64,000 nucleotides of DNA from Candidatus Daviesbacteria bacterium (GCA_016187035.1 JACPKL010000001.1:14607-78606); one strand, 5' to 3'; counted from the stretch's first letter, positions 1-63,487 are shown. Translations and numbers: made by a program. The notes: generated by a model not told the origin, from the sequence alone.

Positions 1-413
1 TCCTCCTTATCAAACCGAACTTTTCCATCATATACACCTACAAATAAAGTAACCAATTCGTTTTCCAAACTTACTTCACCGTTGTTTTGATTCCTGCTTG
101 TTTGGTGATGTGCTTCTCTTATTAACTGAAGACCAACTTCAATCCCCAATTCCTCTTTCAATCCTCTTTTTGCAGCTTGCTCAAAAGTTTCTCCTACCTT
201 TAAATGTTCTGCTGCGCTAATATCCCAATACCCTGGCAGAAGTTTCTTAGGTAATGATCTTTTTTGAAGATAAATTTGATCCTTGGAGTTTTTAATTAAT
301 ATATGAGACGCCCTATGCAGTAATCCTTTTTGATAAACTTCTCCTCTGGATGCTTGTCCAATAACTTTTCCATTTTCATCTACGATATCAAGCTGCTCAT
401 CAAGCTCATCCAT
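1..413 (-). CDS. Nudix-fold hydrolase, IPP-isomerase-like paralog; C-terminal end lies outside the window
   Basis: Not in the ORF track (no stop inside the window). Own minus-strand translation from ATG (cat at 411-413): MDELDEQLDIVDENGKVIGQASRGEVYQKGLLHRASHILIKNSKDQIYLQKRSLPKKLLPGYWDISAAEHLKVGETFEQAAKRGLKEELGIEV, with a Nudix-box-like GETFEQAAKRGLKEELG. Start overlaps the stop of the upstream paralog. Confidence 0.55.
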   Translation of the reverse strand, partial: MDELDEQLDIVDENGKVIGQASRGEVYQKGLLHRASHILIKNSKDQIYLQKRSLPKKLLPGYWDISAAEHLKVGETFEQAAKRGLKEELGIEVGLQLIREAHHQTSRNQNNGEVSLENELVTLFVGVYDGKVRFDKE

Positions 414-939
414 AAAAAAATCCTGATTCTTTTAAAATTTTTAATCCTTCTTGTGACCAAGGAGAGTAATTTTTTGGATTTTTTTCCATATCTTTAAACA
501 GTTCGCCTTTATCTACCCATTTACACTCATAAGCTACTTTGGGATTTAGTTTTATCTCGCCATTATATTCTCCTATCAGGAGGTAATCATGTTCATTCTC
601 GCAAAGAGAACCAACTTTGGCAAAGTAATTAAAACTTCCCACCTCTTTAACTTGAACATTTTCAACTCCATATTCATCTTGTAAAGCCCTTAAGGTTGCT
701 TCTTCTAAACTTTCATCTCCATTTTCTGTATGTAAAGGGTGGGTTGAAGCGGTAAAATCCCAGATATTATCAAAGACTTGATGTTTTCTTTTTTGTAGCA
801 ACACCTCCCCTTTGTTGTTATATAGCAGCACTGTGACAGCCAAGTGTCTTCTTCCTTCTCCGGTATGCCCTATCTTTTTAGGAATATACTCTAAAAATTT
901 ACCTTTATCATCACAAGCTAAAATTATTTGATAAAACAT
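406..939 (-). CDS. Type-1 isopentenyl-diphosphate isomerase-like Nudix hydrolase
   Basis: HLAVTVLLYNNKGEVLLQKRKHQVFDNIWDFTASTHP, EEATLRALQDEYGV and CENEHDYLL resemble the IDI-1/Nudix family. Tandem with a second Nudix ORF at 1-413. Confidence 0.6.
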   Translation of the reverse strand: MFYQIILACDDKGKFLEYIPKKIGHTGEGRRHLAVTVLLYNNKGEVLLQKRKHQVFDNIWDFTASTHPLHTENGDESLEEATLRALQDEYGVENVQVKEVGSFNYFAKVGSLCENEHDYLLIGEYNGEIKLNPKVAYECKWVDKGELFKDMEKNPKNYSPWSQEGLKILKESGFFYG

Positions 940-15173: not shown

Positions 15174-15242
15174 TTTTTTCTAAAAAATATACTTTCTACG
15201 AAAGACTGTCCCGCTTCGCGTGAAAGTCCCACGGTTTATTTC

Positions 15243-15267
15243 AAAAAAAATCCCGCCACAGCGGGAT
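15243..15267 (-). terminator. Rho-independent terminator after argF
   Basis: Minus strand AUCCCGC-UGUG-GCGGGAU followed by UUUUUUUU. Separates argHGF from pyrB-carAB. Confidence 0.75.
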
Positions 15268-15356
15268 AATCAAACTATATTTTTATCTTCAACAATACAA
15301 AGTTTTTGCATAATTCTTTTTGCTAGTTTATAGGTTTATAGTCTATCTGTCAACTA

Positions 15357-16280
15357 TCAAAACTTCTTCCTGCCAAACTTCATTAAGTATATTAATAATC
15401 CCTTTTGGGAATAGAGTCTATTTTCTGCCTGCAGGAATACTACTGATTGAGGTCCATCTATCACCTCAGATGCTACCTCATTTCCTCTATAAGCAGGCAA
15501 ATCATGCATAAAGATTACATCTTTTTTAGCCAAACTCATTAAACTTTGACTAACCTGATATGGTTGAAAGATTTTTAGTCTTTTTTCTTTATCCTTATCA
15601 CCCATGCTTACCCAAGTGTCTGTATAAATTATGTCTGCATTTTTAACAGCTTCTTCTGGATTTTCAGTTTCTAAAATATTTACTCCAGTAGCTTTAGCTA
15701 TTTGTTTTGCTTTTTGGACTATTTCTTTCTTCATAAAGTAACCTTTAGGTGAAGCGCATCTAAAATCAATGCCTAAAAGAGCACATCCCAATACTAAAGA
15801 ATGCGGCACATTATTTTCCCCATCGCCTAGATAAGCCAGGGTTAAACCCTCAAGCCTTCCTTTAACCTCTAATACAGTTAAAAAATCAGCTAAAGCTTGG
15901 CAAGGATGTTCTAAATCAGATAAAGCATTAATTACAGGCACTTTTGAATTATCTGCTAATTCTTCTAAATCTTTATGAGAAAAAACCCTGGCCACTATCA
16001 GATCAGCCATGCTGGATATTATCTTAGCCACATCTGAGACAGACTCTCTTTTACCTAAACCAACTTCCTGGGAACCAAAATAAACAATATGTCCTCCCAG
16101 TTGGTTAAAAGCTATATCAAAACTTAGTTTGGTTCTCAAACTTGGTTTCTCAAACAGCATTACCATAGTTTTACCTGCAAAATAATTTGCATTTCTTTGC
16201 TTTAACTTTTTTACCAATAAAAGCACCTGCCAAATTTCTTTAGCAGATAAATCTGCTATTGATAAAAAATCCTTTTTCAT
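15357..16280 (-). CDS. argF: Ornithine carbamoyltransferase
   Basis: FEKPSLRTKLSF, HPCQALAD, DTWVSMG and HDLPAYRGNEV motifs. Confidence 0.9.
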   Translation of the reverse strand: MKKDFLSIADLSAKEIWQVLLLVKKLKQRNANYFAGKTMVMLFEKPSLRTKLSFDIAFNQLGGHIVYFGSQEVGLGKRESVSDVAKIISSMADLIVARVFSHKDLEELADNSKVPVINALSDLEHPCQALADFLTVLEVKGRLEGLTLAYLGDGENNVPHSLVLGCALLGIDFRCASPKGYFMKKEIVQKAKQIAKATGVNILETENPEEAVKNADIIYTDTWVSMGDKDKEKRLKIFQPYQVSQSLMSLAKKDVIFMHDLPAYRGNEVASEVIDGPQSVVFLQAENRLYSQKGLLIYLMKFGRKKF

Positions 16281-17524
16281 GCTCCCTTTCCTGTCTGGTT
16301 TGCCAGCTTCATCTGTAAGGAATATACTTCTATAAACCCGGCTGATGCATTGGTATTAAATGGATATCCACCTAAGGAAAAGGACGTATGATCCAATCCA
16401 TATGGCGATGCCATTGCTACCACATCTGCTTTGCCTTTAAACAATTTGACTGTAACTTCACCTGTGGCTTTTTCATTAATAAAATCATTAAAAGCATTAA
16501 TTGCCTTCATAGCCGGATCAAACCATAAGGCTCCATAGCAAAGATAAGCCCATTTTGTATCTATCATTTCTTTTATTTCATTCAGGTTTCTGGTTGAGAC
16601 ATATTTTTCCAAAGCCTTATGAGCCAAAATGATTACATGGGCTGCGGGTAGATCGTAAACTCCACCATTTTTAACTCCAACTAACCTATCTTCAAACATA
16701 TAGACCACTCCCACTCCATGCTTCCCGGCAATCTTGTTTAACTTGATTGTTAATTTAGCCAGGCTTAATTTTTCTCCATTTAGGGCAATTGGCAGTCCTT
16801 TTTCAAAAGTGAGTTTAACTAGTTCCTCTTGATTTGGGGCATCTTTTGGCAGCGTGTGAGTTAAAAATTTCTCAACAGGAGCAATTAAATTTGGTTCTTC
16901 AATTTCTCCACCTTCCCAGGTAATTCCCCACATATTGTCATCACTGCTATAGGGAAAATTTACAGAGGCTGGGACAGGGATGCCATGTTTTTTGGCATAT
17001 TTAATCTCTTCATTTCTATCCATAGCCCATTCCCTGACAGGAGCAATGATTTTCATTTTAGGATCCTCTGTTAAAATATACCCATCAAGTCTCACCTGAT
17101 CATTACCTTTACCAGTACATCCGTGAGCTATGGCATCGCAGCCAAGTTTTTTTGCAATTTTGACAGCTTCTTTTCCTAAAATAGCCCTGCCCATAGGAGT
17201 TGACAGATGATAATTACCCTGATAAGAAGCATTGGCTTTTATACCTTTGGCTAAATATTCATTGGCAAATTCCTCTTTTAGATCCAAAACTATTGCCTCT
17301 ACAGCACCAAATTTAAGAGCTTTCTTTTTTATACTTTCCAAATCATCATGCTGTTGGCCTAAATCAGCTGTTAAAGCAACTACCTGACATTTATAATTGT
17401 CCTGTATCCATTTCAACATCACTGAGGTATCTAAGCCTCCTGAATAAAGAAGTAAAACCTTTTTCGCTTCTCCTGCTTTTCCTTCATATGAAGATACTTT
17501 TATATAATCAGTATTACTTTGCAT
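16277..17524 (-). CDS. argG: Argininosuccinate synthase
   Basis: VLLLYSGGLDTSV PP-loop and AHGCTGKGNDQVR. Confidence 0.95.
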   Translation of the reverse strand: MQSNTDYIKVSSYEGKAGEAKKVLLLYSGGLDTSVMLKWIQDNYKCQVVALTADLGQQHDDLESIKKKALKFGAVEAIVLDLKEEFANEYLAKGIKANASYQGNYHLSTPMGRAILGKEAVKIAKKLGCDAIAHGCTGKGNDQVRLDGYILTEDPKMKIIAPVREWAMDRNEEIKYAKKHGIPVPASVNFPYSSDDNMWGITWEGGEIEEPNLIAPVEKFLTHTLPKDAPNQEELVKLTFEKGLPIALNGEKLSLAKLTIKLNKIAGKHGVGVVYMFEDRLVGVKNGGVYDLPAAHVIILAHKALEKYVSTRNLNEIKEMIDTKWAYLCYGALWFDPAMKAINAFNDFINEKATGEVTVKLFKGKADVVAMASPYGLDHTSFSLGGYPFNTNASAGFIEVYSLQMKLANQTGKGA

Positions 17525-18707
17525 TTTTATTCACCTCCATTCCAATTTTTTGATAAGCCTCTCTAAAAGACATTCCTTTTATAACAAGTTCTAAAGCTTT
17601 TTCTGCTTGATAAAGCTCAGCAGTCATGGAATCTTCCAGCTTTTGCTTATTGGGAATTAAATTTTCCAGTAAAATTTTTGTTACTTTTAAGCAAGATTGG
17701 GTAATTTCAAAACTTTCTATTAATGGTTTTTTAGTATCCTGAAAATCCCTGTTATATCCTGAGACTAGATTAGAAGATAGACTAACTATTTGTGTGTAAT
17801 TTCCTAGCACTAAATGTACTTTTGATCTTAATAACTCTCCTATATCCACATTTTTCTTCTGAGGCATGATTGAAGAACCAGTGGTAACCTGATCTGAAAC
17901 CTCAAAAAAGTCAAATTCAGATGTGGTAAATAACATTACATCAGAGGCAAATTTATTAATTGTTTGTAAAATACTAATTAAGCTGGAAACAACACTTGCC
18001 TCAATTTTTCCTCTTGAATTTTGGCAGTAAGTTGTCTGCTGGACTTTTCCAAAACCTAATAAATTCTTTGTATATTCCCTGTCTAATTCAATTGGCGCTC
18101 CATACCCTGCCCCAGACCCTAAAGGAGATTGGTTATTTAACTTGTAAGCAGTTTTTAGAACCAAAAGATCGTCTTTTAATGATTCCATAAAGCTATCTGT
18201 CCAAAGGGCAATTGTTGAAGGCATAGCTTTTTGCATATGAGTATAGCCTGGCATCAGAATTGATCCATAATTTTTGGAAAACTTTTGGAAATTTTCAATC
18301 AAAGCGAATATTTCTATTTCAATTTGCTCTAAATTCTCATTGCAGTATAATCTTATGGCTGTTAAAACCTGATCATTTCTGGATCTGGCTGTATGAATCT
18401 TTCCCCCAGCCTGACCATATTTATCAGTTAAATAATTCTCTATCTTTGTGTGTACATCCTCCTCTCCTTTTTCTAAAATAAATTTATTTTGGTTATCTAA
18501 TTCAAGAATTTCATTTATCCCTTTCTTAATCTCTGCTAGCTCCTGACTGGAAATAATCCCAATTTTTTTCAACATCTTGGCATGGGCTAAAGAGCCTAAA
18601 CAGTCATATTTGACCAATTTTTGATCCATTATCAGATCTTCCTCTGTTTCAAAGGCTTCAACATCTGGATCTAACTCATATTTATCTTTTTGCCATAACT
18701 TTTTCAT
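17514..18707 (-). CDS. argH: Argininosuccinate lyase
   Basis: Fumarate-lyase signature GSSIMPQKKN, TARSRNDQV and PGYTHMQKA. At 397 aa it is somewhat short at the C-terminus. Confidence 0.9.
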   Translation of the reverse strand: MKKLWQKDKYELDPDVEAFETEEDLIMDQKLVKYDCLGSLAHAKMLKKIGIISSQELAEIKKGINEILELDNQNKFILEKGEEDVHTKIENYLTDKYGQAGGKIHTARSRNDQVLTAIRLYCNENLEQIEIEIFALIENFQKFSKNYGSILMPGYTHMQKAMPSTIALWTDSFMESLKDDLLVLKTAYKLNNQSPLGSGAGYGAPIELDREYTKNLLGFGKVQQTTYCQNSRGKIEASVVSSLISILQTINKFASDVMLFTTSEFDFFEVSDQVTTGSSIMPQKKNVDIGELLRSKVHLVLGNYTQIVSLSSNLVSGYNRDFQDTKKPLIESFEITQSCLKVTKILLENLIPNKQKLEDSMTAELYQAEKALELVIKGMSFREAYQKIGMEVNKNAK

Positions 18708-18720
18708 ATATTTTTTAGGC

Positions 18721-19023
18721 TTTAAAAAAGCCCTTGCTAAACCACAAAATTATTGTGATCTAACAAGGGCCATCTTTTGGCGGTGCCACCTTGCTTAATT
18801 TCCTTTAAAAAACCTCCGCTTTTGCGAAGGCTAAAAGAAATTATCTCTTTCAGCGCTCCGTTACCGACACGCTTAGCTGATTTTACAGTTTGCTTTCTGT
18901 CATACTCTGTCCTTCGACTTCGCTCAGGACTGATGTATGCTGCTTGCCTGCTGCGGCAGGCTCAAACGCATTTAAAATATTTAATTGTAAATATACTATA
19001 TCAAGAAATTATTATTTTGTCAA
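18721..19023 (-). promoter_or_regulatory. T-box riboswitch-like leader (promoter, antiterminator/terminator switch) upstream of argH-argG-argF
   Basis: Minus strand: TTGACA (19018-19023), N17, TATAGT (18995-19000). T-box core AAGCAAGGUGGCACCGCC (18779-18796). Canonical antiterminator GCAAGG[UGGCACC]GCC-AAAAGAU-GGC-CCUUGU competes with terminator GCCCUUG..CAAGGGC + UUUUUU (18721-18770). The Stem I specifier is not resolved. Confidence 0.75.
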
Positions 19024-19044: not shown

Positions 19045-19266
19045 TTATTTTAGAGCTTTCAGGAAATCTTCTAAGAGTATATTTGCTTTCTTGACTTGGG
19101 ATTTTAATAAAAATGGAGCTACCTCTTTGTGGAGCGGAATAGATAAAGAAGGTGCATTTGGTTTTTGTAAAATGGCATGGTCACCAGAAGTATGAACATG
19201 GGTATATCCAAATTTTAAGAATGCCTTGACTGCTTTTTTACCTGAAATATTTGCAATCTTAGGCAT
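19045..19266 (-). CDS. hicA: HicA-family mRNA interferase toxin
   Basis: 73 aa. SGKKAVKAFLKFGYTHVHTSGDHAILQK...IPLHKEV matches the HicA/YcfA pattern. Confidence 0.75.
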   Translation of the reverse strand: MPKIANISGKKAVKAFLKFGYTHVHTSGDHAILQKPNAPSLSIPLHKEVAPFLLKSQVKKANILLEDFLKALK

Positions 19267-19498
19267 TTAAAGTAGGGATTGGAGTGTCAACCGACCTCTT
19301 CGCATATTGAGTATTACTTTCTTTATTTGAAGTAATTACCTCCATATAAGCTTTAATAGCTTTTTCTATATTTTCTAAAGCCTCTTTTTTGGTTTTGCCT
19401 TGGGACATACAACCATATAAATTCACTACATCAGCCACATAGCCTTTGTAGGCTTTATCATAAGTTAATTTAATAATGTAATCTAATTTCTTGGTCAT
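19259..19498 (-). CDS. hicB: HicB-like antitoxin (UPF0150)
   Basis: YKGYVADVVNLYGCMSQGKTKKEALENIEKAIKAYMEV matches the HicB N-domain pattern. ATG at 19498 is preferred over the TTG at 19507. Overlaps hicA by 8 nt. Confidence 0.65.
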   Translation of the reverse strand: MTKKLDYIIKLTYDKAYKGYVADVVNLYGCMSQGKTKKEALENIEKAIKAYMEVITSNKESNTQYAKRSVDTPIPTLNA

Positions 19499-19507
19499 AC
19501 ATGTCAA

Positions 19508-23312: not shown

Positions 23313-24163
23313 AAGTATGTTCCCCTACCCCCTAAGGAGATCTTCTTGATTTGAGTCCCACACATTTTACATTTCTGTCTATTTCTGCCGTAACAATAAG
23401 CATAATCTAAATAATAACCTTTCTGCCCTTCGCTGTCTACAAAATTGGCTCTGGTAGAACCCCCAAACTTAATACCATCTTTTAAGGACTTGACTATACC
23501 ATAGTACAGCTTCTTAAATTGTTCGTCAGAAAGCTGAGAAACTAATGTTGCCGGATTAATCCCTGTATCAAAGCAGGCCTCATTAGCATAAATATTGCCT
23601 ATTCCTGAAACAACAGATTGATCCATAATAGCTGCTTTCACAGACTGAGATTTATGATTTAAGAGATTAGATTTAAGAATCTGCCAAGTGAAACTCTTTT
23701 CCAAAGGCTCTGGACCCAACTTTTCAAACAAACGATTTACGATTAACGATTTACGATTAACGATTTTTATCCAGCCGAATTTTCTTTGATCGTTAAAGTA
23801 AAGGTGTGATCCATCGCTAAAACTAAAAATAACCCTAGTATGCTTATTGGGCATATCCCCTGTCATATCTTCTGTTGGATGTCCTCCAATAAATTTGCTG
23901 TTACCATTAAAAACTAATTGTCCGCTCATCTTTAGGTGAAATAAAAGAGTCAAATTACCAGTTATATCTATGCCTAAAATCTTAGCTCTTCTCCATACTT
24001 TGAGTACTTTTCTACCCTGTAGATCCTGAGTGTAGTCGAAGGGTTGTCCTTTTTCATTTTGGAAAGATTTTGGGGAATTTATCTGGATTTTAGTTAATTT
24101 CAATCCTACAATTCTTTTCTCTAATCCAATTTTTATAATTTCTACTTCAGGTAATTCTGGCAT
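23291..24163 (-). CDS. mutM: Formamidopyrimidine-DNA glycosylase
   Basis: MPELPEVE N-terminus, LGPEPL, and a C-terminal zinc finger CKMCG..CPNCQ. Five heptamer units encode KIVNRKSLIVNR. Confidence 0.9.
   Translation of the reverse strand: MPELPEVEIIKIGLEKRIVGLKLTKIQINSPKSFQNEKGQPFDYTQDLQGRKVLKVWRRAKILGIDITGNLTLLFHLKMSGQLVFNGNSKFIGGHPTEDMTGDMPNKHTRVIFSFSDGSHLYFNDQRKFGWIKIVNRKSLIVNRLFEKLGPEPLEKSFTWQILKSNLLNHKSQSVKAAIMDQSVVSGIGNIYANEACFDTGINPATLVSQLSDEQFKKLYYGIVKSLKDGIKFGGSTRANFVDSEGQKGYYLDYAYCYGRNRQKCKMCGTQIKKISLGGRGTYFCPNCQR
23733..23767. repeat. Heptamer tract CGATTTA/CGATTAA x5 (in fpg)
   Basis: CGATTTACGATTAACGATTTACGATTAACGATTTT encodes KIVNRKSLIVNR. Confidence 0.85.
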
Positions 24164-56559: not shown

Positions 56560-56634
56560 TGGTGGCAGCGACAGGGATCGAACCTGTGACCTAGCGGTTA
56601 TGAGTCGCTCGCTCCGCCACTGAGCTACGCTGCC
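56560..56634 (-). tRNA. tRNA with anticodon CAU; G1-C72 paired, so elongator Met (or Ile2 if lysidine-modified); CCA encoded
   Basis: Own fold of the reverse complement: GGCAGCG-TA-GCTC-AGTGGCG-GAGC-G-AGCGA-CTCATAA-CCGCT-AGGTC-ACAGG-TTCGATC-CCTGT-CGCTGCC-ACCA. Confidence 0.85.
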
Positions 56635-58122: not shown

Positions 58123-58194
58123 CGCGGGGAAGTGTAACGGCTGCACACAAGGCTCATAATCTTGAGGCAGTGGGTTCGACTCCCGCCCCCGCAA
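58123..58194 (+). tRNA. tRNA with anticodon CAU and a C1xA72 mismatch: probable initiator tRNA-fMet with atypical D-arm and anticodon stem
   Basis: CGCGGGG..GTGT-AACGGCTGC-ACAC..CAAGG-CTCATAA-TCTTG-AGGCA-GTGGG-TTCGACT-CCCGC-CCCCGCA-A. No encoded CCA. Lacks the three consecutive G-C pairs usual in initiator anticodon stems. About 1 nt short of canonical length. Confidence 0.65.
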
Positions 58195-58440
58195 CCTTTT
58201 TTAATCTTAAATTTCTTCATTCTGTTGGGGCATTAAACAAAATTAAAAAATGATAAAAAAAGTTGGTTATAATGTTGACCATAGGCAGTTTGATAAAGAT
58301 AGTTTCATGTTGCCCATTCTACTTTTTAGAAGTAAAGATAAATTGCCTTTTTGTGTAAGAAAATAGTAATAGATGAGTGTTTTATATTGAAATTAGAGAT
58401 AAGAATCTGTTAAAGTTTGTAAGAAGTTTACGAAAGTCTT

Positions 58441-63414: not shown

Positions 63415-63415
63415 G

Positions 63416-63487
63416 TGGGCGGACCAGGATTTGAACCTGGAACCAAATCTGTATAAGAGATTTGCTCTACCGTTGAGCTATCCGCCC
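63416..63487 (-). tRNA. tRNA-Ile with anticodon UAU (reads AUA)
   Basis: Own fold of the reverse complement: GGGCGGA-TA-GCTC-AACGGTA-GAGC-A-AATCT-CTTATAC-AGATT-TGGTT-CCAGG-TTCAAAT-CCTGG-TCCGCCC-A. All stems are Watson-Crick paired. No encoded CCA. Confidence 0.85.

Follow-up and report, generated by a model that had tools for sequence, protein, structure and literature searches.

The arg locus and its leader

Within a 64,000-nt stretch of DNA from Candidatus Daviesbacteria bacterium (GCA_016187035.1 JACPKL010000001.1:14607-78606), here called the window, the minus strand carries the arginine biosynthesis genes argH, argG and argF behind a promoter and leader at 18721-19023. The leader is, with a probability that we put at roughly 85%, an arginine tRNA-sensing transcriptional attenuator, or T-box, and it is apparently a representative of an undescribed short-stem class from the Microgenomates bacteria of the Candidate Phyla Radiation (CPR). 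A preliminary description of the same DNA had proposed T-box control of argH-argG-argF by alternative folds, and this central claim finds support in the covariation of the antiterminator, in a canonical T-box leader upstream of argH in a relative (locus L024), and in covariation throughout the 5′ half. The genes, the promoter and the start of the leader are arranged as follows.

15357-18707, minus strand: the regulated genes argH (17514-18707), argG (16277-17524) and argF (15357-16280), assigned by Pfam and by the NCBIfam equivalogs TIGR00838, NF001770 and TIGR00658
19018-19023, minus strand: -35 box TTGACA; a comparable TTGACA lies upstream of many related leaders
18995-19000, minus strand: -10 box TATAGT with a TG extension, after a 17-nt spacer; the promoter agrees with consensus at 11 of 12 positions
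18971-18988, minus strand: conserved 5′-terminal leader sequence ACAAUUAAAUAUU..AAAU, at a fixed distance from the -10 box in close relatives

The three coding regions abut or overlap, and both protein family resources agree with the gene order given earlier; the promoter was likewise found where it had been described. Transcription probably starts near 18988, about 7 nt past the -10 box. The resulting leader of some 280 nt has a minimum free energy (MFE) of -99.1 kcal/mol (z = -7.3), and none of 200 shuffled sequences folded equally well.

The terminator and the antiterminator

The 3′ part of the leader, in which the decision between termination and read-through would be made, has three overlapping elements.

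18779-18796, minus strand: T-box sequence AAGCAAGGUGGCACCGCC, aligned to positions 186-200 of the Rfam T-box model RF00230 with high posterior probability
18763-18794, minus strand: antiterminator, comprising helix A1 (GCAAGG 18794-18789 with CCUUGU 18768-18763), the bulge UGGCACC (18788-18782) and helix A2 (GCC 18781-18779 with GGC 18771-18769); the composite strand is complementary at 9 of 9 positions
18724-18771, minus strand: intrinsic terminator, seen on folding, with a 19-bp stem (18771-18729) and a U-run (18729-18724, U6)

At 13 of its 15 specified positions the T-box consensus AANNNGGGUGGNACCGCG agrees with AAGCAAGGUGGCACCGCC. By itself GGTGGNACC occurs once in the window against 0.78 expected, which is not significant alone, and the significance of the T-box core comes from its conservation in relatives rather than from that single occurrence. 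Terminator and antiterminator are mutually exclusive, GGCCCUUGU being common to both, and in this domain the terminator fold is the MFE structure at -35.5 kcal/mol, as against -8.7 kcal/mol for the antiterminator. It is usual for T-boxes that a weak antiterminator faces a strong terminator and depends on stabilisation from outside. All the antiterminator parts that had been described are present, and so is the competing terminator with its U6; its distance from argH had been given as 14 nt and is in fact 16 nt from terminator end to the ATG (18707).

The strongest evidence for the antiterminator comes from 58 distinct leaders, each examined for a contiguous 9-nt complement to a composite of A1 and the first 3 nt of A2. 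A 9/9 complement is present in 39 of the 58, compared with 0.9% after shuffling and 13.8% when downstream sequences were swapped, and the window leader is among those with 9/9. A1 and A2 covary across these leaders.

No sequence resembling a Shine-Dalgarno element lies within the terminator helix, so the sequestration of Shine-Dalgarno or start codon that marks class II T-boxes is absent here. Attenuation by a leader peptide was considered and discarded: the sole ATG-started open reading frame (ORF) of the leader has 6 codons for amino acids, none of them for Arg.

The family and the Rfam model

The closest ArgH proteins (at most 71% identity) are from metagenome-assembled genomes of the Microgenomates group of the CPR, namely Daviesbacteria, Levybacteria, Gottesmanbacteria, Woesebacteria and Roizmanbacteria, with many of the records bearing other submitter labels. 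The core RGGTGGNACC is upstream of argH in about 45 of 80 CPR loci. One of these leaders, that of L024, combines a long Stem I of the canonical form with AGA where the specifier belongs and scores 97.8 bits with RF00230, above the gathering score of 93 and the sole pass among 20 relatives; other relatives with a long or intermediate Stem I have AGA, AGG or CGA at that position, as read by eye. Because L024 passes gathering and the long-Stem-I relatives carry Arg specifiers, T-box control of argH can, on sequence grounds, be regarded as established in this lineage, and the window leader as a structural variant of it.

In the window itself RF00230 gives no match at the gathering score across the whole 64,000 nt. 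With permissive filters applied to 551 nt the score is 22.5 bits (E = 0.006), which still makes it the best Rfam family for the region. The alignment is confident only for Stem III, the T-box sequence and the antiterminator, and it is spurious for Stem I, where promoter bases are placed on the K-turn. The preliminary description had proposed this search as a check and had held that lack of a significant score would count against a T-box. The score did prove not to be significant and, taken literally, that is the refuting outcome, which is why comparative evidence was sought. Since Stem I is not canonical, the low score is a limitation of the model for such leaders and not evidence against a T-box.

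Two alignments of the class were used. An 18-sequence MAFFT alignment was not fitted to any structure; a second, of 51 sequences from Microgenomates genomes and metagenomes, was made to a covariance model and is biased toward the structure by that fitting, and the unfitted alignment agrees with it. Joint MAFFT alignment of the 4-nt and 7-nt loop variants described below gives inconsistent Stem I registers, hence the homogeneous seed and the covariance model. In the unfitted alignment 96.5% of cells are paired and 12 pairs have changed on both sides, with slid controls at 22-45%. The 51-sequence alignment has 97.8% of cells paired and compensatory changes at 18 of 24 pairs (232 cells), with slid controls at 27-42%. 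RNAalifold, given no structure, recovered identical helices and a covarying third basal pair in addition.

The class covariance model, which covers the 5′ half, matches 27 of the 80 loci, each time a short way ahead of argH. Its only match in the window, at 18971-18844, scores 105.8 bits, in the middle of the range for the family. Sampling blind to gene identity was achieved by scanning metagenomes with a class-specific 16-mer of the extra hairpin (see below); 28 loci were kept, and about two dozen were real leaders after a filter for context.

Upstream of argH there are at least three Stem I architectures within Microgenomates: long (L024, L033, L039, L045, L048), intermediate (L010, L019, L031, L034, L057, L060) and apical-loop. 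The intermediate class has a conserved element of its own, AAAUGAGUYAACUG...CUGUCAAGGC. In L045 and L048 the start codon is apparently sequestered, giving them a translational look. The leader is 500-640 nt upstream of argH in L003, L006, L009, L016, L020 and L033, and in several relatives, these loci and L088 and L094 among them, the first gene after the leader, before argH or argF, is a small ORF of about 70-80 amino acids that has no Pfam-level identification (one example starts MVEKREIIGRDILGTL...).

The short Stem I and its specifier

The 5′ half begins with a much reduced Stem I.

18941-18970, minus strand: truncated Stem I, supported by covariation, with a basal helix UGC 18970-18968 / GCA 18943-18941, K-turn-like GUUU-GA (18967-18962) opposite AA (18945-18944), a 6-bp helix (18961-18956 / 18951-18946) and the loop CGCA (18955-18952)
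18953-18955, minus strand: CGC, read as the Arg specifier codon, with the purine A next to it at 18952; from a table of loops across the class

In the 51-sequence alignment all 6 pairs of the Stem I helix show compensatory changes, with 98.9% of cells paired, and the basal pair covaries as AU, UA or GC. Across the class the K-turn-like GUUU-GA faces AA or GA, and its likeness to the canonical GCGAUGAG...GAGC base suggests a K-turn. A long-range base for Stem I, GCGUUUG/CAAACUG, was tried and rejected: its 3′ strand is part of the IIA helix, and in relatives the complementarity has not been kept.

The loop sequence correlates with the pathway of the genes that follow. Loops with CGC and a purine, either CGCA or the 7-nt variant GUCGCGA, are present in about 43 members upstream of arg genes, these being argH, argG, the ornithine carbamoyltransferase (OTCase) gene argF, a GNAT acetyltransferase gene followed by argH, and a gene for an ArgE-like M20 enzyme. 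Loops with CCC or CCU and a purine (UUUCCYG or CCUA) are found in 6 members, of which 4 precede proS (proline-tRNA ligase), the gene for a ProB-like amino-acid kinase, and proC (P5C reductase); for the other 2 the contig ends before any gene. The triplet and its purine always adjoin the 3′ strand of the basal helix on its 5′ side, and RAGC comes after that helix. The candidate specifier has in this respect the canonical Stem I position, and the structure looks like a Stem I cut off above the Specifier Loop. Elsewhere, the specifier of short Stem I variants is "mounted in an apical loop" (PMC7583486). Because the loop triplet tracks the downstream pathway and lies at the canonical position, and because of this apical-loop precedent, the predicted specifier of the window leader is CGC in the apical loop of the truncated Stem I.

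The preliminary description had noted two GC-rich, repeat-like hairpins in the upstream half of the leader. Both are present (18961-18946 and 18930-18909), and the second is indeed a recurrent module, considered next; the first, GCCUGCCGCAGCAGGC, is not a repeat but Stem I with its CGC specifier.

Stem II, the pseudoknot, an extra hairpin and Stem III

Between Stem I and the T-box sequence lie further elements, some with counterparts in canonical T-boxes and some peculiar to the class.

18901-18939, minus strand: Stem II, supported by covariation, with a lower helix (CAUAC 18939-18935 / GUAUG 18905-18901), an internal loop and an apical module
18909-18930, minus strand: the apical module GUCCUGAGCGAAGUCGAAGGAC, a hairpin with tandem G.A pairs, recurrent and dispensable
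18875-18899, minus strand: Stem IIA/B-type pseudoknot, from covariation and permutation, with CAG 18899-18897 / CUG 18888-18886 and loop AGC 18894-18892 / GCU 18877-18875, and containing the F-box-like CUGUAAAA
18852-18873, minus strand: extra class-specific hairpin AGCG-UGUCG-GUAA-CGGAG-CGCU, its outer pairs covarying (CG, UA, AU, GC)
18843-18851, minus strand: purine-rich linker GAAAGAGAU, 5′ of Stem III; GAAAGAGA, GAAAUAAG or GAUAAUAAG in relatives
18796-18843, minus strand: Stem III, seen in folds, a 12-bp lower helix around an inner hairpin CCUUCGC-AAAA-GCGGAGG (18830-18813), then U6 (18812-18807)

The lower helix of Stem II has compensatory changes at 5 of 5 pairs and 99.2% of cells paired, and an S-turn is not evident in the stem. 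Its apical module is not part of the core mechanism, many members of the class lacking it at this position and copies also existing outside leaders. The window has 2 copies against 0.02 expected, the second being at 24021-24044 on the plus strand (its CCUGAG..CGAAGG pattern at 24025-24042), antisense within an ORF. In general form the module is NNCCUGAG-N5-6-CGAAGGNN, with tandem G.A and a variable loop, and it has 26 matches in 1.26 Mb, 11 of them in leaders; it sits on the tips of different helices and also occurs away from leaders (L028 at 5927, L122 at 8754, L126 at 3451 and others).

In the pseudoknot the complementarity of loop to linker is greater within a leader's own sequence than in any of 5000 permutations (5000/5000). 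The middle IIA pair alternates between A-U and G-C, and the hairpin takes the form of a 3-bp CNG/CNG followed by UAAAA; CUGUAAAA, or CCGUAAAA, corresponds to the F-box CCGUUA.

In the extra hairpin the core UGUCGGYAACGGAG (U.G, G.A and U.G, two G-C pairs, and GYAA as a GNRA loop) is invariant or almost so, in 46-50 of the 51 sequences, and the hairpin is without a counterpart in RF00230, where it is aligned as an insertion. Since it occurs together with a long Stem I in L120, the hairpin is not a simple replacement for the elbow-binding platform. A pairing of its loop (YAAC) with the K-turn-like GUUU was sought by eye and set aside, the loop being invariant and the GUUU region varying, so that covariation lends it no support.

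For the linker, a critical string of purines 5′ to Stem III is mentioned in a review (PMC7583486). The inner hairpin of Stem III has a folding energy of -13.0 kcal/mol and its U-run, 5-7 U across the class, is about 10 nt before the T-box sequence. Of the 38 leaders with the extra hairpin, 31 also carry this GC-rich hairpin with U-run, as against 2 of the 19 leaders without it. The element resembles an intrinsic terminator or a pause site of the hairpin-dependent kind; a consensus scan of the sequence did not list it.

In the broad sense, then, the leader has the T-box sequence with its bulge, a terminator, a specifier followed by a purine, and Stem II with the pseudoknot. It has neither the long Stem I with Specifier-Loop S-turn, AG bulge and distal loop nor a score at the Rfam threshold.

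The acceptor end of the tRNA

The UGGC of the bulge predicts that the cognate tRNA would have the discriminator G73. Across the 58 leaders the bulge reads UGGU in 33 and UGGC in 25, and it is UGGU in all five Pro-type leaders for which the T-box core was recovered. Bacterial tRNA-Pro carries A73, which that UGGU fits, and bacterial tRNA-Arg species have A73 or G73.

The tRNA genes of the window are two for tRNA-Met(CAU), at 56560-56634 on the minus strand and 58123-58196 on the plus strand, and one for tRNA-Ile(UAU), at 63415-63487 on the minus strand. The last is an uncommon way for bacteria to read AUA, and one of the two tRNA-Met(CAU) could be a lysidine-modified tRNA-Ile2. A scan of 51 loci for tRNA genes found a single, unrelated tRNA-Arg. 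In L145 an Arg-type leader of the class (about 431-537, minus strand) that reads UGGU and has a terminator is followed a couple of bases downstream by tRNA-Arg(UCU) with A73 (236-309, minus strand). This could be a case of a T-box that precedes a tRNA gene.

Neighbouring genes

After argF come pyrB, carA and carB, separated from it by a 183-nt gap (15174-15356) that leaves co-transcription of pyrB-carA-carB with the T-box-controlled arg genes uncertain. On the other side, directly upstream of the arg promoter and between it and an amidohydrolase gene, is a hicA/hicB toxin-antitoxin pair (19045-19507, minus strand). ArgH has 397 amino acids and matches positions 10-392 of the 455 in the argH equivalog model, with about 60 C-terminal residues absent; as CPR and DPANN archaeal relatives match the same span, the short form appears to be a feature of the lineage and not a truncation.

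Proposed mechanism and alternatives

Transcription would start about 7 nt past the -10 box, and the 5′ decoding module would fold into the K-turn-like base, the 6-bp Stem I with CGC and a purine, Stem II and the IIA/B pseudoknot. A tRNA-Arg with the anticodon ICG or GCG would read the CGC by base pairing. If that tRNA were uncharged, its 3′ NCCA (here GCCA) would pair with UGGC in the bulge and stabilise the antiterminator, allowing read-through into argH-argG-argF. With charged tRNA the antiterminator would lack this stabilisation, the terminator would form and transcription would stop 16 nt before argH. In this scheme the binding of tRNA, the discrimination between its charged and uncharged forms and the identity of the isoacceptor are what we infer; the sequences themselves show the elements, the exclusion of one fold by the other, covariation in every helix, and a correlation between the loop codon and the amino acid made or used by the downstream genes. 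The match of codon to pathway, the UGGN bulge, the F-box-like pseudoknot and the loop with codon and purine are specific predictions of tRNA sensing, and the leader conforms to all of them. As a best guess, and speculatively, the Stem III hairpin and U-run might be a programmed pause that allows the tRNA time to bind a decoder devoid of an elbow-binding platform. A stronger version, that the class is a distinct kind of transcriptional T-box without an elbow platform, compensated by the extra hairpin through a new tertiary or tRNA contact and by a pause or leaky terminator in Stem III, is rather doubtful.

Several points weigh against tRNA-Arg sensing. The RF00230 score in the window is far under its gathering threshold. 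One member, L022, reads AGC-A in place of CGC-A, a single exception. Three bases would be hard, sterically, to present to an anticodon from a loop of 4 nt with a covarying closing pair, and, ahead of the decision point, the inner Stem III hairpin with its U6 resembles an unconditional terminator. Neither the 64-kb window nor the contigs that could be retrieved yielded a tRNA-Arg gene of this organism. Transcriptional T-boxes, moreover, generally need a long Stem I (PMC7583486).

Other locations for the specifier deserve attention. The preliminary description had offered GAA-AGA-G (18851-18845) and GAA-AGC-A (18896-18890), in which case the CGC hairpin would be a repeat-like insertion. Both have the canonical look of GAA, a triplet and a purine, and AGA is an Arg codon. 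The first, however, is in the purine-rich linker 5′ of Stem III, where many relatives upstream of argH have GAAAUAAG, not an Arg codon, and the AGC of the second is the IIA-loop triplet that forms the pseudoknot and covaries with the downstream GCU. With the CGC hairpin at a fixed position, covarying at 6 of 6 pairs and having a loop triplet that tracks the downstream pathway, both placements have been abandoned as exceedingly improbable. A shift of the register by one base, to GCA in the 4-nt loops and GCG in the 7-nt loops, would give Ala codons and the sensing of tRNA-Ala, and the exceptional L022 (AGCA) would keep its GCA. The same shift applied to the leaders linked to proS gives CCG, CUG and CUA, Pro and Leu codons side by side, whereas unshifted they read CCC, CCU and CCU, all Pro. 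Relatives with canonical Stem I upstream of argH have AGA, AGG or CGA, control of arginine synthesis by alanine is without biological rationale, and the canonical geometry has the codon and purine abutting the 3′ strand of the basal helix on its 5′ side; altogether the shifted reading seems most improbable.

That the leader senses no tRNA at all is very unlikely too. The 5′ domain could instead bind a protein or be a small-molecule aptamer controlling the attenuator, the T-box-like core being a relic or co-opted. The RF00230 score is low, neither the invariant extra hairpin nor the Stem III hairpin with U-run is a T-box feature, and a weak match to a PyrR site overlaps the region, with carAB and pyrB behind the arg genes. 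That match, at 18.1 bits against a gathering score of 54 and with E = 5.8, is far below threshold, while the UGGN bulge, the F-box-like pseudoknot, the loop with codon and purine and the correlation of codon and pathway all fit tRNA sensing, and the relatives' leaders at this place in the genome form a gradation up to canonical T-boxes that score above Rfam gathering. It is hardly credible, finally, that the leader is decayed and without function, its terminator merely ending upstream transcription or acting constitutively, even with the reduced genomes of CPR bacteria, the hicAB insertion directly upstream and the C-terminally short ArgH in mind. The promoter immediately upstream is near consensus, the helices are all intact, the antiterminator complementarity is 9/9, the score with the class model is mid-family, and the many compensatory changes imply that the structure is under purifying selection. 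An attenuator responsive to tRNA-Arg is accordingly the reading retained here.

Comparison with known T-boxes

The leader extends T-box regulation to CPR bacteria and indicates that these bacteria, with their reduced genomes, still adjust arginine and proline synthesis in response to amino acids. The standard Rfam model at its gathering threshold misses the class, so routine annotation will not find such leaders. The interest rests on structural class and lineage, the regulatory logic being standard. Within a single lineage Stem I has taken on an unusual variety of forms, long, intermediate and apical-loop, upstream of one gene, and if the class is as distinct as tentatively proposed above, it shows how T-boxes diversified in CPR bacteria.

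Arg-specific T-boxes of Firmicutes include argS leaders, and Vitreschak and co-workers are said to have described in 2008 Arg-specific T-boxes on arginine-biosynthesis operons in Clostridium difficile. The window leader shares with them the tRNA-Arg-dependent attenuation of arginine-related genes and differs in phylum; the Firmicutes leaders, as far as is known, are recognised by RF00230 and have the long Stem I of the canonical form. The reported range of T-boxes covers Firmicutes, Actinobacteria, Chloroflexi, Deinococcus-Thermus and Geobacter (PMC3766115). In the literature searched no paper linking T-boxes to CPR taxa was found, absence there not being proof of absence in the literature.

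With class I transcriptional T-boxes (RF00230; tyrS and glyQS of Bacillus subtilis) the leader has in common the T-box sequence, the 7-nt UGGN bulge and the competing terminator, and also the K-turn-like base of Stem I, the placement of codon and purine, Stem II, the IIA/B pseudoknot with F-box-like CNGUAAAA, Stem III, and control of amino-acid genes that match the codon. It differs in having a Stem I of 6 bp with an apical-loop specifier, without S-turn, AG bulge, distal loop or the double T-loop platform that binds the tRNA elbow, and in having the extra invariant hairpin and, in Stem III, the terminator-like hairpin with U-run.

Short Stem I variants have been regarded as a feature of translational T-boxes, transcriptional ones being said to "generally require" the long elbow-binding form (PMC7583486, PMC11297988), and the argument has been that transcriptional T-boxes need fast association of tRNA and hence an elbow-binding Stem I (PMC7583486). 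The present class would be a natural counter-example to that requirement and a test case for fast co-transcriptional capture of tRNA, for which the extra hairpin and the Stem III hairpin with U-run are concrete, mutable candidates for the compensating mechanism. The nearest structural parallel is with the translational T-boxes that have a short or ultrashort Stem I, those of actinobacterial ileS, in which the pocket that binds the anticodon is where Stem II and the IIA/B pseudoknot make up for the loss (PMC7583486, PMC11297988). Common to both are the truncated Stem I, the absence of an elbow platform, the apical-loop specifier, Stem II and the IIA/B pseudoknot. For the actinobacterial leaders PMC7583486 and PMC11297988 describe neither the extra hairpin nor a hairpin with U-run in Stem III. 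Those leaders sequester the Shine-Dalgarno sequence, are Ile-specific and act on ileS, whereas the window leader would terminate transcription and its class is predicted to be Arg-specific, with Pro-specific siblings, on biosynthetic operons in CPR bacteria.

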